A stretch of DNA of 64,000 nucleotides from Blasia pusilla (taxonomy: Eukaryota), in assembly GCA_050084515.1 (NCBI GenBank), contig CM114271.1:49352001-49416000 (forward strand), written 5' to 3'. Positions 1-54,262 of this stretch are shown piece after piece (position 1 is the stretch's first letter; every line of letters starts with the position of its first letter). The notes below the pieces were generated by a model. It did no database searches. It had not been told where the DNA came from and worked only from the letters and a program-made list of their open reading frames with translations. The position numbers and the translations under genes are program-made.

Positions 1-3000
1 CAAGAAGAAATTTCCAAGAAAAGACTTCAAATGCTTTTATTGTGGTAAGCTAGGTCATCTTATCAAAGATTGTAGAAAGAGGAGTCAGGATGAGAAGAAC
101 GGTTATTTAAGACCTAAGAAGGAGTCTGGAAATTCTGTAGAACTAGGAGAACATGAAGTAGATGCTTGGGTAGCAATAGAAGAGTTTTGCACACAGGTAG
201 AACATTCCACTAAGTCAAAGAGTGAAGATGCATGGGTGCTCGATAGTGGAGCATTTAGGCATATGACCAATCATAAGAATTGGTATAGCTCCTTACAGCC
301 TCTAAAGGAGCTCATCGTTGTTACTGTTGGGAATAATGCAAAGTGCCCTGTAGAAGGAAAAGGCACAATTTCTTTAGTCTCACAAAAAGGAGATGAAAAG
401 AAGTTAACTGATGTACTGTACGTACCAGAGTTGAAGCGAAATTTGATTTCAATGGCAGTATTATGTGATTGTAACCTAGAAGTTCGTTTCAAGAAAACTG
501 GAGCAGTCATTGAGGATGCCAATGGGAAAGTAGTGGGTGAAGGTATACGACGTGGAAATATCTACGAGTTGTATGCTTTCACGACAAGTGTAGGTACAGA
601 TCTTAGTAGCAGTAAGTTGTGGTATGAAAGATTTGGTCACCTTAGCTTTCTCTTACTAAGTCAAATGCAGAAATCTAGCATGGTTGTTGATTTACCAACA
701 ATTTTTGGAGTGTCGGATACTTATGAAGCTTGTATGATGGGAAAGCAACATCGACAGCCATTTCCACAAGAGTCCAGCAATAAGGCAAAGGCTCCTCTAG
801 AGTTGATACATGCTGACCTCTGTGGTAAAATGAGAACAGTGGCATTAGGTGGTTCTTCCTACTTCTTTTTAGTTGTCGACAATTATAGTATGAAGATGTG
901 GGTGTATTTCCTTCGTGATAAGGCAAGTGCTTTTGGAAAATTTAAAGTATGGCACAAGTTGGTTGAGAATGAGACAAGAAAGAAGGTACAAAAGCTTCGC
1001 ACCGATCGAGGAGGAGAATTCTTATCAACAGAATTCAACAAATATTTGGGGGAGCATGGAATCAGTTTATTGATTAACCACGGCACATACACCACAACAA
1101 ATTGGAGTTGTTGAGCGTCGAAACCGTACAGTGGTGGAGATGGCAAGATGTATGATGAAAGAAAAAGGTTTGACAGAAGGATTTTGGGCTGAAGCTGTTA
1201 ATACATTCGTATACATTCTAAATAGAAGTACTACCAAGTCAGTGCAAGGCGTGACTCCTCATCAATCATACTCAGGTAAGGTACCATCAGTCCAACATTT
1301 CAGGACTTTTGGTAGTGAGTGTTTTGTACATATTCCTGAAGCATCTAGGACCAAGCTAGAGTCCAAGAGCAGGAAGTGCATCTTTATGGGATACAGTGAT
1401 GAGTCTAAAGCTTATCGCCTTTGGTATCCTGAGGAAAAGAAGATGGTTGTGAGTCGTGATGTGGTGTTCCAAGAACAGCCTCGTCAAGTGGCGGATATCA
1501 ATGGTCCGTCCACATTATCATCAAACGAAGAGATAACCCACCAGAGCACACCACAAATGTTTACACCAAATCATCAAGAAGAAGAATTTGGTGATGATTA
1601 CAAAGAGCAACCTGCTCTTCCACTACGGTCGTCATACCCTAAGTGGATAAAGCAACTCTTGGATGATAAGGATCCACCAGCAACTGATGAAGTTGTTACA
1701 CATCCAAGGAGATCCAAGAGATTAGAGGAGCAGAATAGAGCTTCCGCATATCTCCTCAACATGGCCTTGATGACAAAGGTCTTGAAGGTGGAAGAGCCAT
1801 CATGCTTGGATGAGGCCCTTGCTCATCCTCAATGGAGAGAGGCCATGCAGATGGAGATGGACGCTATTCAGAGGAATGAAACTTGGACTTTGGTTGAAAA
1901 GCGAAAGGACATGAAGATAATACGCACCAAGTGGGTGTACAAGACCAAGTACAAGTCGGAAGGTACATTGGATAAATTCAAAGCGAGGTTGGTCGCACAA
2001 GGATGCTCACAAATCGAAGGTTTTGACTTCTATGAGACTTTTGCTCCTACTGCAAGGATGACAAACATTCGAATTGTTCTAGCGGTTATAGGAACAAGAT
2101 GTTGGTCTGTATACCAATACGATGTGAAGTCTACCTTTTTTAATGGGAGTCTCAAGGAGGAGGTATATGTTTCTCAACCACCAGGTTTTGAGACACCCAG
2201 ATCATAAGAGAAAGTTTTTTTACTTCATCGAGCATTGTATGGGTTGAAGCAAGCCCCAAGGGTATGGTATCAACGAATAGATACATTCTTTCGAGAGAAG
2301 GGTCTCATCAAGAGTCCGTCAGAAGCAAATTTGTATGTGTTTTACGAAGATGGGATGTATATGTTGATAGTCGTGTATGTGGATGATCTGATCATCACAG
2401 GAGACCAAAGTAAGAAAATAGAGGAAATGAAGGGAGTGTTGAAATCTGAGTTTGAAATGTCAGATTTAGGTCTTCTGCACTACTTTATAGGGCTGAAAAT
2501 TTGGCAACAGTCAGATTCTATTTTTCTCTCTCAGCAGAAGTATGCTAGAGAAATCTTGAAGGCATTCGGGATGACCAAGTGTAAAGCAGTGGTCTTGCCA
2601 ATGGAGATAGAATTGAAACTCTCGATGAAGGATGTTTCACCATTGGTAGATGAAAAGTTGTACAGAAAGCTTGTAGGCAGTTTGATATTTTTGTTTAATA
2701 CTAGACCAGACATTAGCTTCGATGTGGGAGTGTTGAGTAGGTTCTCAACTAAGCCTCGTGAGAACCATTGGAAGGCAGGGATGCGTGTGTTGAAGTACAT
2801 CAAAGGCACTATCGAGTACGGCATCACCTATGGAGCAGGGACGGAAATGACAGGTTTTTGTGACTCTGATTGGGCAGGAGATTCAGATTCTCGAAGATCA
2901 GTTTCAGGTTATTGCTTCTTGGTAGGATCAGGTGTGGTGTCATGGGTCAGCAAGAAGCAACCTACAATGGCTCTTTCTTCTACCGAGGCAGAGTACAAGG

Positions 3001-3317
3001 CGGCTTGTTATGCTTCTTGTGAAGGAGTGTGGTTGAGATGGATATTGGAGGACATAGGAGAAGCACCATAAAGTGCTAGTGTAATGTGGTGTGACAATCA
3101 GAGTTGCATTGCCATAGCACATAATCATGTGTTTCATGCTCGTACGAAGCACATAGAGATCCAGTATCATTTTTTTCGTGAATTGATCGAGAGAGAGATT
3201 TTGAAGTTAGTCTATTGTCCAACAGAGGATAACCATGCAGACATCTTCACGAAAGCTTTGAGCGGAGATCAGCTTCACCGACATCTGAAGGATCTTGGCA
3301 TAGGTCCAAGACAGTAG
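1..3317 (+). mobile_element. Ty1/copia LTR retrotransposon gag-pol (5' part outside window), mildly disrupted
   Basis: Frame 2 from base 2 gives a CCHC knuckle CFYCGKLGHLIKDC. Then protease WVLDSGAFRHM, integrase H..GH..C(Y)EAC, LIHADLCG, TDRGGEF, ERRNRTVVEMAR, RT KARLVAQG, LYGLKQAPR, YVDD and RNase H DSDWAG, TKHIEIQYHF, ADIFTKAL, in copia order PR-INT-RT-RH. Lesions: one frameshift ~1065-1080 and in-frame TAA at 2205-2207 and 3069-3071. Confidence 0.97.
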
Positions 3318-3812: not shown

Positions 3813-5918
3813 CTAGTAAGTTGCCCCGGTACGCACGGGTATACATTATTATTCGTTTAATTTAGCTCTTCTTCAAACGATAATTGTTTAATAATTGTTT
3901 GCGTAAGAGGAGTCCTGTATGGATTCTTTAAACCCATCCTCTCTTTAATAGTGACAATTCATTATTCACGAGGACAAAGAGAACCGACCGGAAGTGCGAC
4001 ATTTTATCCTAGTATGTGTTCATCATGATTGAGTTACGTTTCTCTTCAACTTGGATGTGTACATGTTGGAACCTCGGGGATTCATGCCCCATGCACGAAT
4101 CTCCTCGATATTCAACGATCGGCTTTGGAGTTCATGTGATATTTGGAATCTCACTCCTGCTGCAGTGATTAAGAATAAATTGTGAAAGTTAAAACTTAAT
4201 TAGTTGTCGCAGTCTACACGACGTTTCCCTACTTTACCCCCGATTCACAATACACTCCATATGTATGATATGTGATTGACAAGACTCAGGCTTCCCCCAC
4301 AAACCTTGAGACTGTCCACATGCTCACCGACATGAGATCTCCGGGTCCAGCAAATTTCAAACGAAGTCTGGTACCAGTTGCATGGTGGCAGTGAGTGGCA
4401 AATCTACAAACAATTTACGAACCTCTATGAAGAGCCAGACTAGCTTCGAGCTTATTCTAAACATGGGCCAGGACTATGTACCCATCATTTAGCAGCTCCT
4501 GCAAGTTCCGGCGTAGGTGGAGGCACCCAGGTCATCGACTAATCGAGCCTATTTCACCAATTGCATCTCGCAAGTAGCTTCACCAGTAGCATCCAGCGGT
4601 CTCTTCATGGAGATGGACGATCTCCAGGCCCAGGCTATTCCAGCAAATCTGTCATGTGCAAATCCTTTCTCTCGATCAATGACGGCTGGGACAGACGTGT
4701 GCAAAGCCAATCCGATCATCGATGACAGTTTTTGGAATAGTTTCCGCCGGAAGTTGAGCCAAACTAATCAAGGTCCCGCCCGCCATCCGCTGGTTCCGCT
4801 CGAGATCCCGGTTCTATATTCGGCAGTCCAGTACGTGCGTACAATTCAGGTGTATACACTACGGTTTCAAGATGCCAGCAATCGAGAATTATCGCCAATT
4901 CGAATCCGACAGTTTCCTAGATTTAGGTTTCTATCATCCCGCACTCGAACTCCAAGAGTCGAAGCTTGTCTTGAAAATAAAATTTCAGCAAGCCGGGCCG
5001 GATGGACGGATCGGTTGCGGATCTGGGCTGACCTCGATGTGTATCATGGACCGATTGGTTCAGGATCTATGGACGAATTACAAGGTGGGAGGATTGGACG
5101 GCTCGGGTTATCGAGAACACCGGCATACGTGCCACTCATTGTAGGACCCACATACCATAGACCAGCTTGTCTGAAGTCGATTTCGCTCGAAAAGAAGGAA
5201 AGAAACCGACCGACCGGGAAAAGTTGAGGGGAGAACCCTTCCATGTAAGCAGCAAGGGAGCACCCAGCCCACCTACATCAGTAGCGATTTGGGGCACGAT
5301 AAGGTAGTTGACTAAAACAACGGACTTCGACAATTCTCGGATCCGTAGAGGTCGTGGACGATGTTGATTCCTCCACAGCGAGCATACAAGGGTGCCACTT
5401 TTCCAAGACTAACAAGTAGGCAACCAACCGTGACTAAGACACGATGTGACCATGTAAATGATTGTATACTGCTCTCAGAGTACGACGCTGAAATATTGAC
5501 CGCCCTTCAATAGCTCAAACTCGAAAACCTGCCTGCCCTGGACGAATGGATATGAGGCGAGATTCAGCATTTGATGGTCTTGTCCGGACGACCTTGGGCG
5601 CCCCAAGACTCCTGGATAAACTTGCGAATTCAAATTTCTCAATCACTGACTGCTTCAAACTGTCGTCGCTTTCAGTTCGGAAAAGTTCCCCCCAACACCG
5701 TTGACTGCAAGTTGTGATACGAAATGGAATGTTGCGACTTATCCTTTCTAACTCCGAAAAAGTCTTCTACTAACACCTCCAACTTATCTATGCTGTTTTG
5801 TTTTTACCCAATGGGATCGTTTGTCTTTCGATTACTCCAAATTAATTTAAAACGGCACTCGAAAATCAATTATGGGAGATAATCTAATCTAATCTTACAC
5901 TAGTCTTCTAATATAGTG
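3813..5918 (-). mobile_element. Putative non-autonomous Helitron-like insertion carrying unidentified GC-richer sequence
   Basis: The minus strand reads CCCGTGCGTACCGGGG-CAACTTA-CTAG|T at 3839-3812, a GC hairpin followed by CTAG then T, which is the Helitron 3' signature. The far boundary is only guessed from an inverted CTATATTA..ACTAG motif at 5900-5916. Confidence 0.45.
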
Positions 5919-6249: not shown

Positions 6250-6950
6250 TAGTCCCAACATATTTTTACAAGCAATGAACTTAGCTCTAGATAGTGGTTT
6301 TGTGAAGATATATGCTTCCATATGCTTTGTTGGATCAAAGTAATTATGTTCCACTTCCCCTTTCTCCATGCACTTCCTCATGAAGTGGTGGAAGTGGTGT
6401 TGAATATCAAAATGCTTGGTCTAACGATTGTGAGTAGAATTCCTCACAATCTCAAGACACAATTGATCATCCTCATGAATAAGGATTGCAAATATTTGCT
6501 CAATCCCATAATCTCCTATTTCCTTTTGAAGCCACAGAGCCTCCTTGCTGCAATATAGTGGTATTGCGCCTTTGTTCATAATAGATATTTTTTTACTCTT
6601 TCTTGCTTGACCAAGAGACAAGTGCTCTGCCTAGTATGAAAGCAAAGCCTCCAATTGAACATCACGTCTCCTTGCAACCTCCCCAATTTGCATCATTGTA
6701 TCCTACTAGCTACAAGCTTGTATGTTTGTTGCCATACTACAACATTAAATTCTTAGTTCCATGAAAGGAGCAAAGTACTCGTTACACTCGTTGCTAATGT
6801 AATGTGCAAGGTCAAGACATATACTATTCAAAGTGCTATTAAGCAAAAGAGATACCAAAACTAGTTGCATTTTCTACATAAAAAAATATCCCAATGCTTG
6901 TTGATACAATTTGAATTCTCTTGAGTCGAGTGGCATATCATTCTCATGAA
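6250..6950 (-). pseudogene. Degenerate Ty1/copia RT C-terminus/RNase H fragment
   Basis: Minus translation includes LVGYNDANWGG, ALVSWSSKK, KEALWL, HEDDQLCLEIV, TKHFDIQHHF and YIFTKPLS, with stops and frameshifts. Confidence 0.85.
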
Positions 6951-9380
6951 TGGTCGAATGTCTTGGCTCACCGGACTGCCATCCTGGTCTGTAGAACGCT
7001 GACTCCTCCCAATAATCCAGGGAAAATCCCATCGGGTACAACACTGCTCCACCAACCAAGACTTTGTAGGACTCTGCATCGGTCACGATCGCTTTGGCTC
7101 ACACGACGGACTCATCTGTAGGATGTCCTAGACGAACCCTCACCACGACCTCCTGTCGGGTGATAAATTGTGTGGTACTCGCTCCACTCAAGGATGTATG
7201 TATCCTGAATGGACAGCACTCCACATCGGCCCTCGTCAGGCCCAACCCTGTAAATACCGCCTTCCCCAACATCAGGGGTTGTGCTCTTGAATCTAACAAG
7301 AAACATTGCGGGCAAAACAATCTACCTCCTGGGCTCACCAACTCGACGATCTCTCCCCGGTTATCCAGCAATACAACACCTAGAGCAACCATGGCACGCT
7401 CTATCGCGGGTCTAGCGGGCATCTCCGCCATCCTAGCAGCCGCAACTTGCCATGAATCTGAAGTGGACAGCCCGAGCATCGGCTCCAAGCGCAAGTCCAT
7501 CACCTCCTATGCAATCACCTCTAAATGTGATGCAAAAACACCATCTCCACGCTCACGTAGCGTAGCGGCCAGCCGGAAAACTTCGGCGGGCATACCTCCC
7601 AACGACATAATATCCGAAGCAAAAAATAGCAGAGCAGAGTACACCATTGTGGCCTCCCCCAACATCATACTCGACACATGCTCCTCTTGAGCATCAGCAA
7701 TAGGAGTTGTCGCACACGCTTCTCCCATTGCCCTCCGTGTCTGCACACCAACACTATCGACTCTCCGGGAACTTTGATCAAGACCCATCGATGGGGTCCT
7801 TATCGCCTCAGACAACATGAAAGACTGAGGAAGCCTGGTCTGTTTCCTGGCTTTCCCCCTCTGTGGATCCAACTCCACGGTGGCTCCACGTGTAACAATA
7901 GTAGCTGCCTCCAATTGGACAGTCGCACACATCCAACCAAGATCCTCCATATCTATGGCTGCTCCATACGACGTCGATGCCACTGATCCGGCATCGGGTA
8001 ACCACAATGCCATAGCGGAAATATATTGTAGCCGCTCTATTTGAGCAGCCATTCCAGACATACCCGACGTCTCCCTCGACGCGTCTAAGTGGTGGAACCC
8101 TACCTCTTCTACGGGCAACTCCAACTCCTTGTCCCCCAACGGAACGACCTTGTGCATGACCTTTAGGCCCACCCAGATCGAAAACTCGCTCTAGTGCCCT
8201 CTCTAGCTCTCGGTCCAGACGTAACTCGGGGTGTAAGCTGAAACACCTAGCGCTTATATGACTGTACCTCTAACAATAGTCACATTGATAGCCTCTTGGT
8301 GTAGCACCATCTCCTCCTTCATGCTGAGGCACACGTCCATAATCCTGATGAGTGCAATCGCGTTGGTGATGGGTTCCACCTCAAGCCCAAAAAATAATTG
8401 CAAACAAATACTCCTGAGCCACATATGAAGGCGCATCGTGACCATGTCGCCGCATTCCATCGGCCCTATTAGCTTCCCTTCCACTGCCTACCATAGACGC
8501 GTACTCCTCTTGCCCGCCTGTCCTTGTCGTTGCTTGAATGTGGCCGCATGCCCAAGGTTGAATGATCCACCGCTGTCTTAATTGCTATTTCCCTTCTAGC
8601 CGGGAGCTCATGCGCGCCTAGGTGGTCACGGCGGAACTGCCTAAAGTGGCTGCCGAACTGCACTTTTTCCCTTACGCGCATTCTACTGGCCGCCTAGTTG
8701 CCTACTCGATCGTGGCTACCCTGACTATGATCACGCTTACAATCCTAGAACCTTGCCTGAGCCGCTAGCGCTGATATCCGCCCTGCTGCATTCGCCGGCC
8801 ACCTAGCGGGACTGCGGCTTGCCTTTTTCATTGCCTGTCTACGTCCATACCTACTGTAGTTTGGGGCCGCCATAGTTTATGGCCGTGCGTATACTTCGTT
8901 CGTCTTGCCCACTGCATTCTGTTGCTGACCGACTGACTCCGTCCAACATCGTTAGCCAATTGATGGCCATTGCCTTATCAACAGTCGGAACACGTACGCC
9001 TACGACAATTCAGCCGCCGCCGCTACTCAATTATTGGTCACTACGTTACCAACGACGACGGGTGATTTTTTTCTTGGATTGATGGGGACCGATTTTTCTT
9101 GCGGCTTTGCTATGTCTTGATTGGTAGCCGTTTGACTACAATCGAGTACCATACCGTGACGCCCGTAACCGCAATGCGTCGCCGATTGCCGCGCCGTGTC
9201 GCTCGTAGCCGTACTGCTCCGTCTCGATCGTGGAGCCGCATCATCATTGGAGCATAGCGTGTGTTGGTGTTGAGGAGGGTATGCCGTTGAGTGCCGCATC
9301 CCATTCCCGAGAGCCATGCTGATTGTAGCCATTATGTGCCACCAATGCCGTACCGTATGACTGAACCCGCATCGCACATC
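6950..9380 (-). mobile_element. Ty3/gypsy fragment (copy 1, 3' half): decayed Zn knuckles and aspartic protease
   Basis: FLLDSRAQPLMLGK (D-S-G-type active site decayed), CPFRIHTSL and SYKVLVGGAVLYPMGFSLDYWEESAFYRPGWQSG. Knuckle-like RCGFSHTVRHW and HCGYGRHGMVLDC occur at ~9140-9375. Homologous to 15500-17100. Confidence 0.8.
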
Positions 9381-9479
9381 TAGGAGATTTGAGCATCGTC
9401 AGTACCAGGGCGTACGACCTGCTATTTGGAGGAGTTTGTCTTCATGACCAAGTTGGGGTCGAGATTTGAAATTTCTGAA

Positions 9480-10850
9480 GAGCGACACAGACATTTATTC
9501 GGGTTACCCATTCTAGTCTTTTGCCTTGCACGTGTTAGGGAATTCTGGGTATTGGGTAGTTATTTGGGATATTGGGTTTCGTGTTGATGCACAAAGCATC
9601 ATTGATGTATGGGTTTAAGGGACATAGACCTGTGTGGGATGTCCAAAGTTGAGGGTATGTCATGTCAATGAGATGATAGGACACTAGCCGATTTGCTGCA
9701 TCACGCCACTTGTTGCCACATAGCACACGTCTCAGTGAGAGAGTGTAGATTGAGTGCCGCATGTTAGATTGAGTGATTACTCACGAGGTTGAGAGTGATG
9801 ACGTGAGAGGGGCATAAGGGCATCATGGCGTCCTTTTGGGACTTTGAGAGGCGAGATGGTGGACCTAAGGGTAGCTCTAGAGGGTTTACGCGGTATGGCA
9901 CGAGGTTTTGAGGGTCTACACGTGAAAGACCGCCTCAACCTCTTTTTTGTCGTCTTCAAACAAGGGGGAGAGTGTAGAGGAGCATGTTAGTGATTCACCA
10001 TACATATTAAGTGGTCCTACCAGTTGGGCGTACGAGATGGACAACCAAGGTAGAGGACTGCGTAGGTTTTCGGGTGCTATAGGCACGATAGAGTTGCACG
10101 ACTTTATTGCACAGTTTAGGAGTTGGTGTGACTCAGAGCGGGCTAGGAACTCCAAAGAGTTCAACCCGTTAACAGCATGGAATGGAATGTTCCAGCATTT
10201 AGAGGGGATGCCTATGGACGATTACCATGAGTCCTCTCATAGATATGCCTAGGAGATTGAAGCATGGTGACTCTACTATTACCCACATTTTGTGTCATGG
10301 AGTGAGCCATTTCCTAATGAGGAGGAGGAGTCAAGAGAGGCTTCTTCCTTTTCCACCAGTGATGTTTTAGGAGGGGTAACTCACACTAGAGCAGTTGCAC
10401 CGTCTAGTTAGGCTCGTCCCAAGTTCAACCCCGTGGTTGAGTTCTTTGCGGAGTTGAGGACGAGCTACCATGGGGTACGGATTGAGAAGTTGCGGAGCAT
10501 CCACGACTTCGAGAGGCGCTCGGGTGACAGCTTGCGTGAGGCCTACACTCGCTTACGTTGGTTGATTAACGTCACTCAGGGGCGACAGAGTCCTAGGCTA
10601 ACCAGTCATGGTACGCAATGTTGGACGGAACCCTGTGGACACGATTGCGGGAGGGGGTGCTTCTTAAGAGCACCTCACCTACATTGAGAGATGTTTTTAT
10701 AACCACCAAGAACATTAAGCACAACATGGCAGAGGAGAGCGTAGCCACTATGGGTTCTAGGCGAGAGCAGTCACGATTGCCTGCACCACCAATGCAACAA
10801 CGTGGATTTCGAGATAGGTCTATGGCACCACGAGCTTAGGAAGGATACCG
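9480..10850 (+). mobile_element. Ty3/gypsy fragment (copy 1, 5' half): leader and gag, opposite strand to its protease
   Basis: MDNQGRGLRRFSGAIGTIELHDF..AWNGMFQHLEGMPMDDY and VEFFAELRTSYHGVRIEKLRSIHDFERRSGDSLREAY match the gag on the minus strand at 17134-17990. The leader motif GGTTACCCATTC..GGGTATTGGGTAG is shared with 18375-18445 (-). Confidence 0.8.
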
Positions 10851-11573
10851 GGAGGCCGTGCCATAGAGACCTGCACCTTTGAAGATATTGGAGGATAGGC
10901 TCACGAGGTTGAGGATGACCGGTTGAGGCCACGGGTAACTTGAGAAAGCATGTTTCTCCTTCGTTTCGGCTCATTTGGAGCCACGTAGAGAAACTTGATA
11001 TTTTTGTTTATTTGTAATATAGTTGACTTTCTACTTTAGGAAGTGGCCCTTGACCCGCTATAGCAAGTCAAGAGCCAAGGAGGTGACCTGAAAGCATAGG
11101 TTATCGAGGAGAGAGTTTGGGAGAGGGAAGGGGCTATACCTCCAAGAGAGAGAGCTTAAGAGCTCATTCTCTCTTTGTTGAACCTCTTGGCATGATGCGG
11201 CGGAGCTATGGAACTCCTTGCCTTGTGTGTGTAATCCAAGCCTCTCATTAGGAGAATGGGTTTGGTTTGACATGAGAGAGAGTGCACACCATGGAGAGCT
11301 TGGCGTGAGATGTTGAGAGAGATTTGATTGATTTATTGGAGATATTTTGGTACTTCTCGTCGCTTTGTTTAGATGCCATAAGTTAGCATGGGATCGTGTG
11401 TTTTTGTATGTATGTTCGTTGACAGCAATATCTGTTGTGTAGCGATGTGTATGCGTACGACAGAGCACCTTGTGATGATCTTGAGAGATAAACACATATT
11501 AGACACAAAAATAAGACACAATAAGATCTCGTAGCTAAAAATTATGTCAAAGAATTTTCAAGGTTACACAGAA

Positions 11574-12108
11574 ATGGACATGTCCATGGACAAACTGCCT
11601 GCTTACCTGCAAGCTTGCCCCCTCTTGGCCACGGGCCATAAAACTGACGTGGGCTCGGCCAGCCTAGGTGCCCACCACGGGCTCGGTGGGCTTCAGGGCC
11701 GGGCTCAGGTTCAAGCCATGGATACCCGGGCTCGCACGGACATGTCCATCCTAGGGACGGACATACGTCTGCGGATATGGACTTTGTCCGACGTGTATAA
11801 CCCTGAGCATTTTGCACGTACCATGCAAGTCCATCGCGAACCAACCATGGCTTGATTTTTGCTATACTACATGACTAAATGACACTTTTGACTTGCACAA
11901 GATATGCAAAAAAAATGGAATTAGAAACTTTGTGACTATGTTGCAACTCTCAAAATTGAGAGTTTTTAGATGTATTGTAGCTATGCAATGGCCAACTTGC
12001 AACTCTTGGAACTTGTAAAATTCCATACGGACAAGTCCTTCCATAGGAAGGACATGGACATGTCCATAGACACAGACTTTTTCCACATGCAACCCTTGCC
12101 ACATGTCC
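11574..12108. repeat. Cluster of GGACATGTCC-type palindromes in an unclassified repeat
   Basis: ATGGACATGTCCAT at 11574 and ~12055, CGGACATGTCCAT at ~11737, and variants at ~11758, 11777, 12028 and 12101. Confidence 0.7.
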
Positions 12109-14235
12109 TCTTTATTTAAGAGTATCACAATGGTAAGTTAATGATATCACTTGTAAGGTGATATGCAAGTAGATGGTGTCTTTGGTATGACTATCGCACG
12201 AATGTGAAAAACACCAAGCTTTAGAGTTGCACAAAAATCACAAAACTAGAAAGTTACGAACCATATGTGGCAATTGTGTGGCTATTACATTCACACAATT
12301 TCAAATTTCAATGGTTTGAGATTGTGTCGAGATTGGATTTAGAGAGCCAAATTTGCACCTTTTATACTATCCCACTCCCTTAAGTAAACCATCCGAAGCC
12401 TTCTAGAATTAAATCATTTCCCCACTCCCCAAATTAACCATTACTTTAATAATTTAATTTCCACTTAGCTAATACTAATTGTAAAAGAGGAGACTCAAGA
12501 TTAGGAACTCCAAAATATAAGCTTAAGGTAGAGCATTTCATGAGAAAATTTGCAAAAAAATTCAAGTGTTTCTATCTTATTGTTTAGTAATAAGCAATAT
12601 TAACTACAATAATATGGAAAAGGAACGTTTAAAAAATTCTTTCATCTTTAAAAATTATTCTTACAGTTTAAATTTTGAAAAATATAAAAAATTAATGATG
12701 GCATGTTCAAAGTAAAATTTAAATTTTACATAGAAATTTATCTAAATTTTATGAAACCTTGTTAAATATTGAATAGTATTTTCTTAATATCCTAATTTTC
12801 ACTTTGCAAATTATTTCCTTGCCTAGATTAATTTTCATCTATTAGGGATTATACTCTAATATAAAGATTCGTTCTTCCATACCTTGAATGGTAAAAGAAA
12901 GGAAAGGGTAGGAATTTAGATTCATTACAAATGATGTGACCAGATTTCAAAAATCTACACTCTAATTTGAGGAGTGTTTCTAACAAGAGGATATCTCTAG
13001 AGTATGACACGTGGCATCCTCAGCTCGGCACGTATATATTTCAAGATGTATATGGACAAGAGCATGCAGCACACAATCCCTCACAAGTACTAACTAGTAT
13101 ATTTAAAAAAAAATTATGGGGAAAAAAATAGAGGAAGGAATAGACAAATATTCAAATCTTATCATTACACGTTACAATTTTCAAAATCACATCATTTGTC
13201 AAGTAAACGTGGCATTTTCTTGAGTGACAAAAGTAAAGGACTTTGTGTCAGGGGAAAAATTGTCTCAATTTTGTAGCAAAAGGTTTATTTTTTATATTAA
13301 CTAAAATTTTGCAAAATGAAGTTGTGTGCTTTTAAATTCTTTCTTTTTTGAAAGAAGAGTGGGGATCCTATTTAGAATAGTTATGAAGAATTGGTACAAT
13401 ACAAGGAGAATTCTATTATCATAAAATCATCCAAACATAATGATTATAATCAGTATAATTCTTCATATTTTTAAATTATTAAAACCTATTTCACCAAAAT
13501 AAATATTTTATTAGAGTATATTTCCAAAAATTCAAGATTTTCCAATTTTCATCCCATTTTTATTCCAAGAAACTAGCAATCACAGCTCAAAAAGAATAGA
13601 TTCACTCTATTTCCCCATTTGGAATAAGAAGGGTAAGAAAATGTTATGGAACCTTTTAAAAAAAAATTCCATGGTAATATAAAGATAAGCTAGCTAAATG
13701 TAGAACTAATTGATGCCTGCATTGTGCATACCCAAGAGTTCTAATGTCTTCGTAATTGCCAAAATTTGTGTTATGATCGTTAAGTTCATAGTTCATTCCC
13801 CAAGAAGACCACATTTCTCTTGTGAATTAAGAATCTCTCCAAAAAATTATAAATAAGTTAGATAAGGTACCATCTCAATTCCCATATTTTTCAAGAATTT
13901 GACCTACACTAGATCTCCAAGCCTGATAGTATTAGTTCCTCCCTTAGCCAATACCTTCTTAAGTGGAAATGGAAAGTATTGCCATCCTTTATGAATTCTT
14001 ATTTAGCTAAGAGAATCAAAGAATGATTAGACAATAACTAGAAAGATTTTCCTAATTTCAAAATTTAATGCGGCCGTCTTCGCCGGTTACTCTTTGTTTG
14101 ATAGATTTCAAACACCCTCGTTACTTTGCTCTCTCGCTCTCTACAAAATTCACATTTGGAAAATTTAATGCATCTTGAAAACCCAATGTGATAAAGATTG
14201 ACATCTCTGCACATCAAGATATGAAATTGCATACG

Positions 14236-14373
14236 TGTTGTGCACATGCACATCGCTACACAACCCACATCGCTGGTCACATCTACATACCACACAACAC
14301 CAATCTCCCCCAACATACGGGTAGATCCACACATAAATGAAACATACTCATGCATATATATTGGGACCCCAAA
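14236..14373. repeat. Direct repeat B, copy 2 (~137 bp)
   Basis: Aligns with 14997-15133 (ACCCACATCGCTGGTCACATCTACATACCACACAACACC..CATACGGGTAGATCCACACA). Confidence 0.93.
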
Positions 14374-14375
14374 AC

Positions 14376-14994
<619 letters not shown>

Positions 14995-14996
14995 AT

Positions 14997-15133
14997 TGTC
15001 GTGCGCATACACATCATTACATAACCCACATCGCTGGTCACATCTACATACCACACAACACCGATCTCTCCCAACATACGGGTAGATCCACACAAAATGA
15101 AAGATACTCATGCATATACACTGGGATCCTACA
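14997..15133. repeat. Direct repeat B, copy 1 (TG...CA bounded, follows PPT on minus strand)
   Basis: Runs TGTCG...CTACA and is adjacent to the purine tract at 15135-15144. Confidence 0.9.
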
Positions 15134-18100
15134 ACTGCCCCCCTAGCTGTCAGTTGGGTCCCCCTAACTCTAGATAGCACACACATATGTACCCAACATG
15201 ATCTACTATCCTATGCACATCTAGCACCATCGGTGCCATCGTCCCCGCAACACTGCCACACTACAGCAACCCGTCGTGTTGATCCCTCCGAAGAGATATG
15301 ACACTCTCGTATCCTGCTCCAACCATAGGCACGGCTCCACGCCTGCCTCACAAGCTTGTCTCCACTCCATGCATTTCAACGCTCGTCCCCAACAACAATA
15401 AAGCAACTTTGTACCATGGGAAGAGACATCCACCTTGGCATGTCTCTCCATGGGACTATCCGCTATAGGAATATCCTCCACATGTGTGATCCTCACCCCA
15501 AACCCTCCTGATCAACTAACACCATCTGTGAATTTTTCCAACGTGGTCACCGTACCCTCATTTGGTCGACCATCACTACTCCATGCAAACAACATCGGTA
15601 GATGGCTCACCCATCCATCACCTGATCGCCACCCTAGCCGATAAGAAACCGTCTCCTCCCAAAAATCCAGAATGAAACCAAAGGAATACAACACCGTACT
15701 CCCTACCAACATATCATACGACTCTACACGTGTCGTAATCGCCCAAGTGCACACCATCGCACTCTCCCACTCATGTTCTAGTTGGATTCTAACCACCAAC
15801 TCTTGTCGAGTCATGTAGTGCGTGGGTGATACACCCCCAATAGAGGTCTATATCTAAAAGGGACAACGCTCAATGTCGCCTTTCTGTAAATCCAACGCCA
15901 AACACGATGCCTTCCCTAGCATCAACGGTTGCACTCCCAAATCAAGTAGGACACGCTGCGGGTGGTACACTGTACTTGTGGGACTTACCAAGCAAAAAAC
16001 TCATGCTTGGTTATCTAACAACACCACACCTGGTGTGATCATGGCTAGCTCTATCGCAGGCCTAGCTGGCATATCCACCAACTTTGTTGCCGCTGCATGC
16101 CATGACTCAGTGGAGGACACCCCAAGCACTTGCTCCGAGGGCAAGTCCACCATCTCCTCAACTACCTTTGAATGAGAGGCAGTCACCTCTCCATGCTCAC
16201 AAAACATGGCGGCCAGCCGAAACACGTGTACAACTCCCACCGTCGCCAACTCCATGGCAGAAAACAACGGAGCGTGGCTCACCCTTGTGGCCACCTCCAA
16301 CAACATGGTTGACACTGGCTCCTCCTGATCTGGCATAAGAGTTGTCTCTCCAAATCCTCGTGACATCGATGCATCTGCCTCACCCGTGGGTACTACCGGT
16401 TGTCAAGGCACCATTGACGGTGTATGAAGCACCTCCGACAACGTGAACAATTTGGGAACCCTGGCTTGCCGCCTATTGGTTCCCTCTTATGGGTCAATCT
16501 CAACCCCACCTCTTGATGGCTCGGTTACTCTCGCAGCACCCCGAGTCACCACCACAGTAGGCTGATCTGCACTACACATAAATCCCATCCCCGTAGAATC
16601 CTCACTAGCATCGTGGTAAGATATGGAGGTTGGCACCACACTAGCTACACTCAGCTCCGTGCCTATCACTGGCTCCATCGTCATCATGGCAACAACCCTC
16701 TACTCCAACTGATGAGCATTGCATCGGGTGCACGTCCTCCATCTCTTGTGATTGGTGATGGAAGTCTACCACCACGATCATCCACTACTCGATCTCCACC
16801 AAATCTCTCGCCCCCAAGTCCTCTACCTACCTCTAGGCATACCTCTCGGCAAAGATCGTAACACCTATCCCTAGTGTGACCATATCAGTGACAATGATCA
16901 TATTGCAACTATGGTGGGGCCATCCTCTATGGCTCCTGAGCAATCGGAGATGCCCGTGGCCCTCTCTCATGGTGTGGGCAGTCCCTCTCTCTATGTGAAC
17001 CACCACATGTCCAACAAGCCAACCCTGGTCCCTACTCGGAAATATATGTCGGTACGGGCGGTTTCCTCATCGGCTCACGATACCCGCCCTGCTCTCTGGG
17101 CCTAGCGGCCCACTCCCATGGTACTGGTGCATGTTAGAGCACATGTAGCTCTACTCCTACTAGTTGACCCGTCGTATCCCGTGAAAATCCCGTGGTCACC
17201 ACCTTCTCCTCACTCATGTTGAGCTCTACCCGCTCAGACAACTCGAAGACCACATTCAATGTGGGCTTTGCCATGTGAAGCAACATTGCATCCCGAACAC
17301 TCCTCCGTAGCTCCTTGTCCAGCACCCTGTACCAATACTATATTGACTACGCCTTAGTCACTCCATATGTGGCAACAATCAACCGTCGCATGCGTGTGAT
17401 CGCCTCCCTCAAACTCTCACCCGATCTCCGCTGAAAATAATGTAGACTCTTCAGCTTGTTAGTTCGCACGCCCTCGTAGCTCCTCCCCAGCTGCCGGAAG
17501 AACTCCACTGTAGGAATGAAACTCGGTGGTCCTCTACCACAAGAGGTCTTTTCCATCTCACCACTCTCACTACCATCCTCTCCATCTAGTCCCCGAGCTG
17601 ATGGTGTAGGTCTCTCCGCCCTCACTATCCCATCATACGCCTTGAGATCACTAGTGGACACATACCCTAGAGCCCAATACACCCTCCAAGTATCAATCTC
17701 TACAGAGTATAGAAATCAGAACTCCATGTAGTCATCCATCGGCGGACCCTCCAAGTGCTAGAACAACCCCTTCCATGCCATAAAAGGGTTGAACCACGTA
17801 GGGGTCCGTATCTCCTGGATGTTGCACATACGTGCCAAACTCCTAGATGAAATCGTCAAGATCTATGGTGCCTACCGCACCCGAGAAATGACGCACGCCT
17901 CGGTGGCCCATGTCGTCCATCTCTCTCCACGTATCATCGTCCCTATCTGAGATTTCGTCACCAGACCCGCTAGTGAGTTTCATTCCTACAGTGGAGTTCT
18001 TCCGGCAGCTGGGGAGGTATTTTGAATAGACATGGTGTTTTGAAACCCCTCGATACCCCGTTCTTCCGAACCCTGGAAGAACACCGTGATGATAACCTTT

Positions 18101-18949
18101 CTCACCCGCTCAAGCACTCAGACTCACCAAAAATCTCCCACACTCCTCACTAGCTCACCTACACTAATAGTAATCCAGTGACAACACACCCGACCTCACG
18201 CGCACTCAACACTCGATCTCACCATGAGCCTCCTAACTAACTCACCTAAACTACCGACACTCTCAAGTCATAGATATGACTCCCACTCGGCAACCGCCGT
18301 ATATCCATAGACATGCTACGCATGCATGGAGACTACACTCGTCACCATCGCCACACCCATCTAACACCATTAGCTACCCAATACCCAATACTCTCAATCA
18401 CACAAGATAAGTGCGGGAAAAGGCTAGGGACTTGAATGGGTAACCTGATCATGCCCTCCAATCTACGGCACCATCAACACTCACTCCTCCATGTGGTGCG
18501 GCAACCTCCGCAACACGACATTCTCTTCGACCAACACGTCGAGCCTCCCATCAACATCGGCGTGTGTGTCTCTAGCACAACCCTCACATCCACACTCGAT
18601 GAAGAACTACTGCTTCGACCCCCAATCGACTCATAATAACTGCCAAACTCCTCTCGCGAATCCACCATGCTCGCAAAACACCAAGTCTCAACAATGCTCT
18701 CCCTCTACGTAACTCACCTCAACCACGTCTGACCCCAACCATGTCTATCGTCTACCACGTTGCTCGAGCCTCTACCATGTTGTCTGTGCCTCTACCACAT
18801 CCATTCGGCGTACCATGTGTGCCCTACCTACTACGTCCTCCTGTCATACCATGTGCGACTTTCCTACCATGTCGGGAAGGCGCCAACCATGGCACTCCCA
18901 ACCACGTGGAGGGGGGGGAAGGGTCTTGACGCGACCCTCCTTAAATGCC

Positions 18950-19090
18950 GGGAGAGGCCGTAGTCCGCGGTGCCTCCCTAACTTTTGGCGCATGCTGCAA
19001 CCCTAAACCCTACGGCCGCCCCCCGCAGTGCAGAGAGCGGACGTAGTCCCTATGCGTGCCTCCCTAACTTTTGGCATAGGCTGCAACCAT
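18950..19090. repeat. ~85-bp period tandem duplication with a telomere-like AACCCTAAACCCTA between the copies
   Basis: CGTAGTCC..GTGCCTCCCTAACTTTTGGC..GCTGCAACC occurs twice. Confidence 0.8.
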
Positions 19091-19891
19091 CTACTCCCGG
19101 CTGCAACTCCTGCGATCAGCTTTCGATTGCGTCCGACCCTGACTTCGTATGCACAATTCCATCCATGTCGACTTGCACAGCCACGTCCTTTCACCCCAAC
19201 ATCTTCCTTCCTTCCTTCTGCCTTATCCAACACGCGCCCCTATGCATGGGTGTCACTACGACCGTGTCACCCATGCCTACATGTGGCATCTCCTTATGCG
19301 CCACTTCACGCATCTATCTATGTTTGATCGCACAACCCTATGCTTCTCCGAACTCAATAGCCCCGCCTCTCGACTTGGCATGTGCACGGTGCCCTATACA
19401 CCTCCTAGCTTCCTATCTCCGCGGCAGCCTTGGCCGCCACATGGCAAACTCTCATTACTCGTCAGCTTTGCGGACTACTCTAGAGTTGATTCGCGCCTCC
19501 TCAAAACCAACATACCCTAACCCTATAACCTGATCTTTTAACAACCTAACGACTACTTTGTGACCTAAACGACTACGGCTCTGACTTAGCCGCCTTCACT
19601 TAATATCCCCCCACGGCTGCAAGACTGGACATATTATATCTTCCCGAATATTCTCATTACTCACTTGTGACCGTCCGTAGCCACACCAAGCGCCACACTC
19701 AACTGTTGTCACCCGTCAACCCACACCAACAAAATCTGAGCAAAATGAAAAGGGCTTCCGCGTAGAACCTTTAGAACAGAAAAAAAATACACAAAATGCC
19801 ACACATGCATCTCCAGTGGCTCCCCATCGAGGCAACTCGCTTGCCTACCTACAACCAATGAATTCCCTGCCCCCTCACATCTTTCTCATGT

Positions 19892-20376
19892 AAAATCAAG
19901 AGTAATAAAAACGGCTCACCCAGCCTAAAACTCCACTCATGAATCTACATCAGCATATCAAACCACATCCACCCTCCGCTATGAGGGAATCTAGACGCTA
20001 GCACCCTAACTCCTACACACCCACCCACATCTATGCAAGAGAGGCGCTCCTAAGGCTCAACATGAGAAAGATGCCTTGGGAAGTCATCTTCCTCACTCTT
20101 ATACCCTTGGGAAGAGCCAAAAGGCTCTTCCCCCAAAAATAGCCCTACCAACGGTAACCTACGAGCACAGGTTACCGGGTGACCATTGACTTGGTCAACG
20201 CGTCACTTGACAGACTAAAACCAAAATAGGAAAATCACCATAAACGACTTTCTTGACACAACAAACATGTTGCCAACCTCATCCGACATCTTGGGACGAA
20301 GTTACCCGAATAACCCGTTGACTCTCTATGTCGTCGACGCGATAGAACTCTACCTACATCAAAATAAGATGTGACA
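19892..20376. repeat. Direct repeat A, copy 1 (LTR-like)
   Basis: Aligns with 14376-14994. Begins TGTCACA on the minus strand. Confidence 0.93.
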
Positions 20377-20982
20377 TATGTTACTACGTCCATCAAAGAT
20401 CTATGGGGACCTTAAAAGATTACAATGCTCAAGAAGCTACTTCCTCTTAAGCCTAGACCATTCTGAAAACATATTGATGTTCTCCAAAAATGATGTCTTT
20501 CTTGTTCTAGTCTCTTCTTAAATAGGAAAAAGCTAAGGCCTTATAACAAATATGGAATGTCCTTTTTTCATGTCTATTCAAGGTTTTATCTTGGCCTAAG
20601 GTTGATCCCACCAAAATTGCGTGTTCTTTCCTAATGTTGCACCTCCCGGAAGCACCTTTCCCAAGTGTCGTGTCCTTTAGTGGACTTTATCCGATCTTCC
20701 TTGATTTTATAGTCTTCGTTAGGGAAGTCTTCAATCTCTGTGACTTTTTAGTAAGTACTTCATACTTGTGTCACATAGTCTTCATTGCTCAATTTTTGCC
20801 ACAAAGTACTTTGTAGCAAAGAACTTTGTTTATATTTTGCGCATACTATTCGCTGTCACTCATCAAACACATAAACCCTAGACTAACTCAATCATCCACC
20901 AAACACAACCACAAAGGAAAATTGTAATCAAAATATCTCCAATAAAATAAATGAAAATCTCACAACACACAAAGAGATCCTT

Positions 20983-20984
<2 letters not shown>

Positions 20985-21053
<69 letters not shown>
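20985..21053. repeat. (CT)n microsatellite
   Basis: Perfect dinucleotide run. Confidence 0.99.
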
Positions 21054-21057
<4 letters not shown>

Positions 21058-21296
21058 AAACTTATTCTCATGGTGAGAGGATGGGATTACTCATAAGGAA
21101 AGGACCATTATAGCCTCGTTGCCTCATGCTGAAGAGGTTCAACAAGGAGAGACCGATCCATCTATCTCTATATACTCGTGACATACACCTATATGATGCT
21201 AAGAGCAAGAAGGTCGGGTGCCCATGTGGCCCCATCATTAATCGGCCTCCCGTTATCCATGTCATTTAAGCAAGTCTAAATATCTAATTATAAAGC

Positions 21297-23960
21297 TTAT
21301 GTACATCTAGGGCACATTCATCGTCCCTGAGGAACTAGAATGAAAGGTGGTGTCAAACATGCCTTATGCCACCCTCTTGAACAACCATCACAAACTAGTA
21401 ATGTGGTTGCACCCCTAGCATTCCATACGACATAAATGGCAAACCTACAAATACCATTGTCAAGCTTAAGCTTGGATTAACTATACTATCAATATTAGGA
21501 AGGTGATATGGAAGACAATTATGCACGTAGTCCTTCCAAATCATACCATTATGTTCCTCTAATAGAACAACTTGAGATGGAAAAACCTCACGCATTCTCA
21601 AAATGGTGTGTCATGTTATCACATCCAAAGTTTTCAATGTTGTTTGCTAGGTAGAAAAAGTCTCTTTGATGGAATAGAACCTCTATATAAATCGTTGGTC
21701 AATGGCCTCCTCCCCAAATAGTTGTATACCTCAACATATCTCGATGTTTTTTAATCGCTAAATTCTCAAACATCATGGGCATGACTCTCCAAAATGTCTT
21801 CGCCCTTCTCGTAACCTCACGGTCATCAAGGTTTAGCACCTAACTAGCATCACGACAAAGGGCATGCACTAGGAAAATTTGGCTCTCGTCCATATAGCAA
21901 GAAGTAAGATGAAAAGGATGGCAAGGATGTTTGCCTACTAAACATGTACCTAATTGCCAACAACGACAATTATAGATCCTTATCTCCTAAGTGATCTATC
22001 TTCAAGCCATACTTACTCAATCCCCTAGGCCTCTTCGCCGTCTAGAGTGTAGACAATATGCTCGGCCGGACCATTTTAATTTCCTCTCGATGATCTGGAG
22101 ACATTGTGTGATAGTGGATCAGTGCCGCATCACACAAAGCTTGAAATTCCCCGTGAAACTCGATGCCCTAGTCTGCCAACACTTCTGTTGGTATGCCGTA
22201 TTGATTCAGCACTCAATCAAGGAAAGTTTGTGCCACTCTCTTACTCGCATGGTGGGGAATGCAACCCACTCCATCCACTTTGAGAAATGGTCGACCATCA
22301 CCTACACAAATCTCTTGTAGCGCTTAATCAATGGATCATATAATCCAAACTCCATTGATAGCCTAAACCCATGATTGATAGTTACTATGCAAATACACAT
22401 CGCTGCCAATATACATCAGATGTCATGCACATAAGTCTAAGATCCCTCTACATATGAATCCTAACATATTTATACATGAATGGCTCGACAACCCCAATCG
22501 GCCCTATAGTTGGTGGTTAGTTCCCGAGTCTAAATACTATGCAAATTTTTGGCATTAAGATCATGAGATTGGGTGCTATATTGCCCATTGTTAGTCACCT
22601 TTCTTCAATCCAAAACATCAACAATTATCTTGTAATGTACCTATCACACCCATATGTATCTGGGACAAAGCCAACATGATTGAGGAACAAAGTCAAGAGG
22701 CTAAGTCAAGCACGATATATGTCATCCTTGAGAACATCCATCATAGATCAGCATAGTAGTTGCTCCTCTAGCACACCCACACAACATATATACATCTCAA
22801 GCCTACAAGAATAACTTCCGAGCTTGGATCAATAATCCCATCCACGTTTGGAAGATGATATGGCACACAGTTAGGCACATGATCTTTCCAAACAGTACTA
22901 TCACAACCCTAAAAAAATAGGACTCTTGAACAATGCGTGCCAACCGAACACCATCTCTCCAGCATTTTCACTGCTCTGGTTCGTGCATGGGTTACAACTT
23001 AACCCATCCGCATCCTAGTTCACATGTCTTGGGCAATGGACAAGCTGAAAATTGTACTCCTACAATAAGAGTGCCAATTTGGCAAGCTTCCCTATAAGCT
23101 TGTGAGTGGCCAATGATTAGTGATGAGCATGAAAGGATTCCCAAAAATAACATTTGAAATGGGCCATTGCCCATACAACAACTAAGCACTCCCCGTATAG
23201 GAATTGGACTTTTCAAACGCATCATTGTTCAAACAGCTTGTATATGCTACTACAAACTCCTTCCCTGCATCATCTCGTTGAGTGAGAAATGCTCTTAATC
23301 CCAATATACTCCAGTCCATGTATAACTAGAACGGAAGAGCACGCATAGCTATCCTCAAAATGGGTGAGGATGTGAACATGTCCTAAAGGTCCTAAAATGC
23401 TTGCTCCTGATCATCTCCCCAAAACCACTCTTGGTCAAGCCTAGTCAGCCAAGTTAGTGCCTTTGCAATTGCACTAAATTCTTTCATCTACCGTTGGTAG
23501 TAGTTTTCCAATGCCATGTAAGCTCAAACTCGACTCGTGTGTGTAGGGTCATGAATGCGCGTTATCGCCTCCACTTTCATCTATTGAACTCCAATACACT
23601 ATGGATAAATGGTGTGTCCTAGATACTAGATCTGATCATGAAAGAACCTCTTGGATGTAACTTCATCCCATGTAACTCCAATCGTCAAAACACCTCTTGT
23701 AGATGTCTCTCATAGTCTTCAACGGTGACATTGAAGATGATGATGACATTGATATAACATCTTATGAGATCCAAATCCGCCAGAATCCTATCCATAACTT
23801 GTTAAGAATCTACAAGGGCATTCTTCAACCCAAATGGTAAGAACGGCCATTGGTACAAACAATCGTTCCCTAAAGGACCTATATCCCAAAATACTACCTT
23901 CTCCTTGTCCTCTACCTGTATGGGCAATTGAAACTAGAAGAAATTAAGTCTATAGCCACT
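21297..23960 (-). mobile_element. Degenerate Ty3/gypsy pol (RT-RNase H-integrase) with C-terminal PHD finger (copy 3)
   Basis: RT DKEKVVFW..LYQWPFLPFGLKNA and RCYINVIIIF (YIDD decayed). RNase H DHQP/E-W-L region. Integrase DHFSKWMEWVAF and YGIPTEVLAD*GIEF. C-terminus LLVCDGCSRGWHKACLTPP..VPQGR*MCPRCT* at 21297-21400. Order RT-RH-INT is gypsy. Many stops. Confidence 0.9.
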
Positions 23961-25429
23961 AGATTTTAAGACTAGATTTAGTTCTACCGGATCAATAACA
24001 CTAGCTTATAACTAGAAAAAATTTAAGGACTCGTCATAAAGGATTTCTAGTGTAAAAATGACATGTTGGCATAATGTCTTATGTTGAGTTGGAAAACGAA
24101 TGATTGAAGAGAATCCTGGTCATTAATCCAATGAGTATGACATGGAATTTCACGATGCTTATGTGCCAGGATTTTTGTACAATTTTGACATGTAGACAAG
24201 GATGAGCAGTTGAAGTATACGTCTGACACATGGACGACTGCAATAGATGTAGTGTTAATAAATTTTCCCTGCCACATATCATTATTTGACACTAAATATA
24301 GTTATTCTAGTTATTAATTTATGTAGAATCCCTCGTAGGTGTTTTACTTGAAACTATTTGTAGATTTCCTAAACTAGTGGTTATTTTCTTCTCATCCCCT
24401 CCAATTGAATTGGTATGCATGTTTCAACTTGGAGTAGTAAAAAAGAGTCACCGATCTAATGAGTCTTTCGCTCATTTGTAGGAGGACAATATCTTTTTGT
24501 ATAATTATAACGAAGTATAGTCATTCTTTTTTAGCTAGTAATATTTTTATACATGATTAAAAATTAATAATAGTTCCATTAGGTTACCAAGATAATTTCT
24601 TATTGCATGTCATTTATCAAACACTACAACTCATGAAATCAAATAGACCATACAATTTTCATGAGTGAATTTCTTACATACAATCAATTGGATTAACCAA
24701 GTTATCTCCATGAATAAAGATTGGCACACTAATTATATCATGGGCAGTAGATCAAAGGGAAAAAATACATCCAACTTTATTCTAGAGAGGATCAAAAATA
24801 AAATGGAATGTTTTGGAAGATTTCCTCAACTAGAACAAGAAGTAGAGCCAGTATGGAAAAAAAAATTAGCCCCAACTAATATAATTAAGCAGGGAGTGAA
24901 ATTGCCTCCTCTTATTTCTCTGGCCATAAGACACTAGTGCCAATAGCATGCTTTAGAAGTGTATGGAGGGGGGATCATCTTTCGAGTTTGGAAATGGAAG
25001 CTCTGCATCCCCATCAATAATGGTCAAAACATCCACTTGGTCAAGTCCAAGTAGAATAATTCTTCCATGACAAGAATCCCTACCAACAATGCCTGATATG
25101 CGTCCACTGACTACATGTTGCCAATCCCTCCAACTCTTTGATAGAAAGAATGTATCTCCCGCTCAACTACAAAAGCCAAACCATGCAATAAATCAACCCA
25201 CAAGAAATTACGTGAAGCATACATGGCATGGGTAGATAAAGCATTTATTTATTTTCAATCTGAAAATTGTATCTTCATGAAACTCCAAACATGGCTTGGA
25301 ATGTTGGATGTATAGCTCACATGTTGCAATCAATTAAATCATCAATGCAAAAATTGAACCACAAGTTCTCACTAAGTTCACCTCCCGTGTATTCATAGTG
25401 GGCATCAACATCCCTACGCACCGCTTTCA

Positions 25430-54191: not shown

Positions 54192-54193
<2 letters not shown>

Positions 54194-54262
<69 letters not shown>
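54194..54262. repeat. (CT)n microsatellite abutting the LINE 5' break
   Basis: Perfect dinucleotide run. Confidence 0.99.

Follow-up and report, generated by a model that had tools for sequence, protein, structure and literature searches.

A Ty3/Gypsy-type retrotransposon of Blasia pusilla with a DNMT3-like methyltransferase, a PHD finger and split terminal repeats

Can one retrotransposon of the land plant Blasia pusilla carry both a DNA methyltransferase (DNMT) and a histone-reading PHD finger? The question was raised by a 64-kb stretch of its genome (GenBank assembly GCA_050084515.1, contig CM114271.1, positions 49,352,001 to 49,416,000; hereafter the window), in which a preliminary description had singled out four stretches, here called fragments A to D (6950-10850, 14236-20376, 21297-23960, and 51700-52475). 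It had combined them into one composite element with the order gag with multiple knuckles, protease (PR), DNMT, reverse transcriptase (RT), RNase H (RH), integrase (INT), and PHD, the PR-RT link being only inferred. All four stretches, read as open frames, contain many stops throughout. Here, we report that the complete element is present in the 390-Mb assembly, to which all genome-wide counts refer, and that the window copies are dead, deleted members of a high-copy Ty3/Gypsy clade with at least three subfamilies.

The window protease had at least 150 scored genome matches (79-86% identity), and the C5 methyltransferase profile had 123, of which several lay 0.6-0.7 kb behind a protease from the list. 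Stretches of 10 kb were fetched for the 20 best loci of each of the two picks, protease and integrase, and a domain was counted if at least half of it was present. PR, DNMT, RT, RH, INT, and PHD all stood in order at 17 of the 20 protease-picked and 8 of the 20 integrase-picked loci, and a DNMT was found at 19 of the former. Pfam placed DNA_methylase, RVT_1, RNase H, integrase zinc finger, rve, and PHD on one strand and in one order in both L021 and L024, the latter a full-length copy. The composite, including its PR-RT link, is therefore observed within single genomic elements, and the gag knuckles are real, numbering two (CCHC) in genomic copies. The contrary reading, under which the protease and the PHD belong to elements of two separate families and a DNMT has no part, could be drawn from the window alone, where the pieces come from different subfamilies and a DNMT domain is undetected. 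It is refuted by the loci with all six domains; moreover, both autonomous subfamilies carry a DNMT, and some database gene models (Marchantia, Closterium, and Klebsormidium proteins) join DNMT and RT. We give it almost no credence.

The complete element is about 10.3 kb long and reads repeat A1, primer-binding site (PBS), untranslated region (UTR), a first coding part (gag with two knuckles, protease, DNMT3), UAG CAA CCA, a second coding part (RT, RNase H, integrase, PHD), polypurine tract (PPT), and then B1-NN-A2-B2. Its pol order, PR-RT-RH-INT with a DDE integrase, is that of Ty3/Gypsy. The Pfam scan of element-strand frames of L021 and L024 returned no tyrosine recombinase (integrase domains instead) and no chromodomain (a PHD at the integrase C terminus instead). 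Divergence between A1 and A2 was 0.8-6.8% in 12 pairs, as in young copies. Family members lie in tandem or nested at L124, L142, L159, and L160, which suggests frequent insertion into or beside one another. Separately, the four strongest C5 methyltransferase matches (L011-L014) lie on two small contigs (C20 and C23), cover more of the profile than the retrotransposon matches, and are possibly bacterial or viral.

The best solved-structure matches of the DNMT were DNMT3A, 3C, and 3B (DNMT3A, E value of 1.6e-13), and a structure model built on a 30-sequence alignment (pLDDT, 86.5) gave DNMT3A/B as top Foldseek matches (TM score, 0.7-0.8). The enzyme is intronless and lies inside the polyprotein; motifs I, IV (PC), VI (ENV), VIII, and IX are retained in most copies in non-rearranged order, and the catalytic PC and ENV are conserved across 30 homologues. 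Of 17 main-subfamily copies, 14 show GWPC and 13 show ENV. Ratios of nonsynonymous to synonymous substitution (dN/dS) between subfamilies, a check proposed in the preliminary description, were 0.16 for the DNMT (76 pairs; net, 0.11) and 0.23 for the PHD, with dS near saturation; corresponding values were 0.12 for PR, 0.11 for RT, and 0.09 for INT (range for PR, RT, RH, and INT, 0.07-0.12). Both DNMT and PHD are under purifying selection, and within subfamilies the ratio was 0.28-0.77, as expected of decaying copies. The top solved matches of the PHD were the fingers of CHD4, MLL3, PHF12, KDM5A/B, DPF3, BHC80, and ATXR5, many of which bind histone H3 unmethylated at K4; the aromatic cage of K4me3 readers is presumably missing from the element's finger. 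By analogy, the PHD would most likely tether the integrase to H3 tails unmethylated at K4.

The terminal repeats, which had been described as long terminal repeats (LTRs), turned out to be split. Both ends were recovered for 18 of the 20 protease-picked elements; 14 have the form A...B-A-B and 4 the form A...B, with repeat A about 510 nt and repeat B 128 nt long, instead of the two full flanking LTRs of Ty3/Gypsy elements. The second subfamily and the fragment B family share this layout with other sequences. Elements end in TG...CA and are flanked by a 4-bp target duplication, exact in 12 of 18, with one mismatch in 4, and worse in 2 (one of which is exact with the outer A). Cross pairs of ends matched over 4 bp in 4 of 306 cases; duplication lengths of 3, 5, and 6 bp were rejected, none being seen. 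Exact junctions were counted genome-wide, with reversed controls of 0 throughout: 1413 between A and PBS, 1362 between PPT and B, 449 between B and A across two nucleotides (a CpG-rich pattern), and, for the join of A to B, 1346 with one A and 454 with two A. The B-to-A junction reads ACA-NN-TGT, and one-A and two-A joins both occur in each common spacer class (AC, GC, and GT).

A stretch that lies about 160-190 nt before A ends, and ~28 nt behind a TATA-like box, has its reverse complement just behind A1. The complement was at least 13 nt long at a fixed place in 24 of 30 loci, a length reached by 1 in 20000 shuffles, and both folds paired the primer site with the sequence behind A1 (z of -2.1 and -3.3). 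In fragment B, both partners have changed together, a different PBS being matched by a different complement (covariation); a usable A1 was present in just 2 of 10 upstream stretches of its relatives, where complements of 8 and 10 nt add little weight. At L116, L125, and L136, complementarity of the sequence behind A extends on to bases upstream of the primer site, and at L117 and L137 a copy of the primer is retained inside the A-to-B join, both as expected if these bases were copied from an RNA primer and the join were made afresh. A tRNA primer is unlikely, as the sequence behind A does not start with TGG (judged from the sequence start, not from a tRNA library).

From these features we infer the following replication cycle. 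Transcription would start in A about 28 nt after the TATA-like box, and the first 14-16 nt of the RNA would anneal just behind A1 and serve there as the primer for reverse transcription in place of a tRNA, in a Tf1-like manner. Because the PPT precedes B and the PBS follows A, the terminal repeat made by RT would be B-NN-A. The integrase sites would lie inside this repeat, at CA-NN-TG, and the integrase would cut there; the ends made by RT (the end of A and the start of B) would be end-joined, either before insertion, as a two-LTR circle, or afterwards by repair, to give A-int-B-A-B. A one-LTR circle or a double cut would give A-int-B.

The order A1...B1-A2-B2 is also that of Ngaro/PAT-like elements (as given in the available text of PMC6681497 and PMC5890265). 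A DIRS/Ngaro-like route, by which the RNA reaches B2, the internal B1-A2 serves in a circular intermediate to restore both ends, an integrase replaces the tyrosine recombinase, and the A-to-B join is inherited, would explain the exclusive A-int-B-A-B form without extra assumptions. It sits badly with a purine tract before B1 (the 1362 exact matches) and a self-primer site after A1, placed as for an LTR of the form B-A, and with an A-to-B join that varies (one A, two A, deletions, and retained primer copy) independently of spacer class; a drop in RNA depth in the last bin of L024 is a weak further point against it. We consider this route unlikely and retain self-priming followed by internal cutting of a B-A repeat.

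Between DNMT and RT, 20 of 22 copies carry TAG CAA CCA, which shares the frame of DNMT motif X in 13 of the 22 and fits the read-through motif UAG-CAR-YYA (available text of PMC3542737). Database relatives are split into gag-PR-DNMT and RT-RH-INT-PHD proteins (P0008, P0024, P0079, and P0080), apart from the gene models that join DNMT and RT. The RT-RH-INT-PHD part would be made by occasional UAG read-through, in which case the DNMT would be made on the Gag side and, as we propose, packaged in quantity. Expression was assessed in three stranded RNA runs from one study, picked by species label. With 6-12% of a run examined, 5084-5360 reads per run covered L024 in every one of its 30 bins. They were mostly of one strand, with the first mate on minus, an orientation that in most libraries of this type corresponds to sense RNA. 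For the most part the reads were 90-95% alike, as for a family of copies.

Window pieces were assigned by nucleotide comparison with the fetched genomic loci (L021, L024, L152, and others). L024 matches all four stretches; the supposed complementary pieces belong neither to one copy nor to one subfamily, and fragment C is two elements. The same aspartic protease indeed recurs in three of them, at 7376-6968 (minus strand) in fragment A, 16024-15616 (minus strand) in fragment B, and about 51865-52420 (plus strand) in fragment D. RT, RNase H, integrase, and PHD are present in 21100-24100 as claimed (RT, RNase H, and PHD by Pfam on the minus strand, and integrase by comparison with full copies). 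The claimed DNMT dwindled to a motif I remnant in fragment B, the only methyltransferase trace in the window: Pfam detected no DNMT, gag, or protease in 18 read-through frames of the four stretches, and the full DNMT query P0001 had no match in the window. The tract before the repeats that fragments B and C had been thought to share is not homologous, being the true PPT in fragment B and 3' UTR ~140 nt upstream of the PPT of L024 in fragment C; the supposed homology was rejected as a misalignment.

Fragment A reaches 11462, beyond the limits given for it, and is one rearranged copy near L024 (78-84%), with gag on the plus strand and knuckles and protease on the minus strand:

6968-8435, minus strand: inverted part with two zinc knuckles, spacer, and aspartic protease (81-84% to L021 2390-3890 and L024 2429-3888)
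9108-10879, plus strand: forward part with 5' UTR and N-terminal gag (78-81% to L024 667-2396 and L021 614-2397)
10886-11462, plus strand: 3' repeats, most of repeat A and then repeat B with its CA end (82-88% to the L024 repeats)

The forward and inverted parts adjoin within 8 nt in the intact element, and the inverted part stops short of the DNMT. The 3' repeats contain the TATA-like box (11135-11139) and a 16-nt self-primer site (11163-11178). A GC-rich stretch (8436-9107) with no match among the fetched loci separates the two parts.

Fragment B is a member of a non-autonomous gag-PR family, an offshoot that is complete end to end:

14236-20376, minus strand: whole element, A1-PBS-UTR-gag-PR-(deletion)-PPT-B1-AT-A2-B2, 6.1 kb (from repeat pairs and junctions)
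19892-20376, minus strand: repeat A1, with a TATA-like box and a 14-nt complement of the PBS
15615-17900, minus strand: decayed gag (two knuckles) and protease (42-46% identity to Marchantia protein P0008)
15253-15320 (about), minus strand: remnant of DNMT motif I, FGGI-T (77% over 69 nt to L021 4262-4328; end of the tblastn alignment of P0003)
14236-15156, minus strand: 3' end, with PPT 15156-15136, B1 15135-14997, a 2-nt spacer, A2 14994-14376, and B2 14375-14236

It has TG...CA ends, a candidate 4-bp duplication (TACG/TATG), a PBS at about 19891-19878 directly behind A1, and a (CA)80 microsatellite within A2; its repeat pairs led us to reject an ordinary-LTR reading. DNMT, RT, RH, INT, and PHD are absent between PR and B in 10 of its 10 nearest relatives, where the protease leads straight into the purine tract and repeats; a DNMT found at one of them (L142) is part of a neighbouring element. 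Fragment B also holds a perfect 43-nt inverted copy (17482-17524 and 17975-18017), missing there in four relatives, which is a recent templated insertion into an otherwise old copy.

Fragments C and D resolve as follows:

22388-23931, minus strand: fragment C1, part of RT, RNase H, integrase C terminus with PHD, decayed PPT, and repeat B (75-83% to L152, L156, L157, and L158, versus 68-70% to L024)
20930-22380, minus strand: fragment C2, integrase core, PHD (21406-21298), a piece of repeat A, (CT)34, and an A-to-B junction (69-71% to L023, L024, and L052, versus 65-66% to the second subfamily)
51533-52420, plus strand: fragment D, a very old spacer and protease piece (67-69% to fragment B and relatives)
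52498-52667, minus strand: start of an L024-type repeat A, abutting fragment D in the opposite direction (76% to L024 8923-9090)

Fragment C1, whose integrase core is deleted, represents the second autonomous subfamily; over half of the DNMT is present in 7 of 10 of its relatives, one of which owes it to a neighbouring copy. Fragment C2 (PHD Pfam E value, 5e-8) is an old copy nearer to the L024 type. As the two abut and differ in subfamily, the RT and the integrase core of fragment C come from different copies.

Elsewhere, the window contains a fairly young Ty1/copia remnant (2-3071, plus strand; knuckle, protease, integrase, and RT over three long frames), a glycosyltransferase family 90 gene (29636-32758, plus strand), an EDR1/CTR1-like kinase gene with several exons (about 37000-44608, minus strand), and a LINE-type RT fragment beginning at a (CT)35 tract (54161-55555, plus strand). 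Four dispersed repeats, 70-80% similar, occupy 55905-59000 and 60386-60688, with a scrap of CACTA Tnp2 transposase alongside.

The methyltransferase would most likely act on newly made cDNA of the element itself or on the insertion site, a proposal to which we accord close to an even chance. It may instead work after insertion, in self-restraint or mimicry, by marking flanks or new copies for silencing or for gene-body-like CG methylation, or be a noncatalytic binding module, with no methylation of cDNA in the particle. The fragment B family spread without a DNMT while keeping gag and PR, so a cis-encoded DNMT is not needed for spread, which speaks for restraint or binding; that family could, however, have been served in trans. 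Also on the side of restraint or binding, the enzyme of an algal homologue, KnitGypsy-Dnmt3 of Klebsormidium nitens, gave no methylation in yeast, a result that its authors call inconclusive (de Mendoza et al. 2018; available text of PMC5890265). The conserved PC and ENV, across homologues and within the genome, would argue for catalysis. We see restraint or binding as a serious possibility that nonetheless falls somewhat short of even.

Overall, the composite element with a self-primed, internally cut B-A repeat is, in our judgement, probably the right explanation. Several observations weigh against it. Every copy examined contains breaks; CpG observed/expected is 0.83-0.85 in young copies, so that long-term methylation has left no strong mark on the active lineage; across the UAG, 9 of 22 copies disagree in frame, and gag-to-PR frame counts (7, 9, and 5) are uninformative. 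The near-saturation of dS and the yeast result for the algal enzyme count on the same side. The species label is the only tie between the RNA runs and the best-matching dataset, no RNA run being listed among the matching ones, and in the three runs read starts revealed neither a transcription start nor an end, with no sharp start at the predicted primer site. Finally, a free two-LTR circle should also yield A-B-A-int-B, a form that none of 18 mapped copies, none of 30 B-to-A loci, and at most 1 of 30 A-to-PBS loci (L127, partial) showed, and this near-absence leaves an asymmetry; speculatively, the PBS-side repeat might become double-stranded first and be engaged first. The fullest version of the proposal is a streptophyte-wide clade with self-primed cDNA, a DDE integrase cutting CA-NN-TG inside U3, end-joining of the true ends, a DNMT3 at Gag stoichiometry methylating new DNA, an integrase PHD reading H3K4-unmethylated chromatin, and more than a thousand transcribed copies contributing to the host methylome. 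Taken whole, it is rather doubtful; if true, the writer-plus-reader logic of animal DNMT3 would have been rebuilt within one mobile element.

DNMT3-bearing Gypsy elements were previously known from one alga, in few copies and with no demonstrated activity. Here the family shows over 1,400 exact terminal junctions as well as young copies and RNA reads, and it has close relatives in the tractable model Marchantia, so that a land plant now offers a way to test why a retrotransposon should retain a cytosine methyltransferase. For the repeat layout, which the 2018 paper noted without explaining, there is now a concrete model with support from sequence (internal integrase site, self-priming, and fresh LTR-LTR joins); it departs from the textbook rule of integrase acting on cDNA ends. 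LTR finders overlook such elements, which raise the number of DNMT genes counted in bryophyte annotations.

The nearest named relatives are in Calypogeia, Marchantia, Riccia, and Sphagnum. A quick midpoint-rooted RT-RH tree (52 rows, 2 dropped as too short; plant reference lineages and Tcn1 not included) separated a 41-row clade (SH-aLRT, 99) of liverwort, Closterium, Klebsormidium, Tetraselmis, and further elements from 9 animal-type rows, with the K. nitens protein P0145 on a long unresolved branch. In the related elements P0046, P0049, P0068, and P0178, the DNMT lies between RNase H and integrase rather than before RT; this position and their separate grouping in the tree suggest that the DNMT moved or was captured twice. 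P0145 has the order DNMT-RT-RH-INT and 46% identity over 260 aa to the Blasia DNMT; from species and architecture, it is probably KnitGypsy-Dnmt3 itself. Another K. nitens protein carries the integrase PHD.

The preliminary description's under-described system is thus a real element of a kind already described in Klebsormidium. In the available text of PMC5890265, KnitGypsy-Dnmt3 shares with it the Gypsy domain set, DIRS-like repeats, and a DNMT3 that is encoded in pol as part of the polyprotein, is intronless and non-rearranged, and evolves under purifying selection (Ka/Ks < 0.2). The Blasia element differs in its land-plant host and far higher copy number; the main text of that paper mentions no PHD (0 occurrences), self-priming, target duplications, or read-through, although figures or some supplements may show a PHD. 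EpiLTRs of Cymbomonas and Euglena (bioRxiv 10.64898/2026.05.21.726589, available text) are LTR elements that likewise join a DNA methyltransferase to a chromatin reader; theirs are a DNMT4-related enzyme, an adenine methyltransferase (DAM), and a chromodomain, whereas Pfam finds here DNMT3 and PHD with neither DAM nor chromodomain. As in Tf1/Sushi and plant Tcn1 (available text of PMC4600332 and PMC6317226), the PBS is complementary to the predicted RNA 5' end and probably not to a tRNA, and Tj1 resembles the element in having a stop codon after gag; unlike those chromoviruses with ordinary LTRs, it has a PHD, a DNMT, and split repeats. With Ngaro/PAT-like elements and VIPER (PMC6681497, in the text available), it shares the repeat order A1...B1-A2-B2, and it differs from them in its DDE integrase, TG...CA ends, and 4-bp duplications, no tyrosine recombinase having been found. 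A literature search, with most subscription journals and Repbase outside its coverage, returned no account of land-plant members, a PHD in such elements, self-priming, or an internal integrase site. The element is a land-plant relative or variant of KnitGypsy-Dnmt3, of a known but little-studied kind; new here are the proposed Tf1-like self-priming with covariation, the conserved UAG-CAA-CCA stop, the apparently freshly made LTR-LTR joins, the non-autonomous gag-PR offshoot, the abundance of exact terminal junctions, and the one-strand RNA reads.

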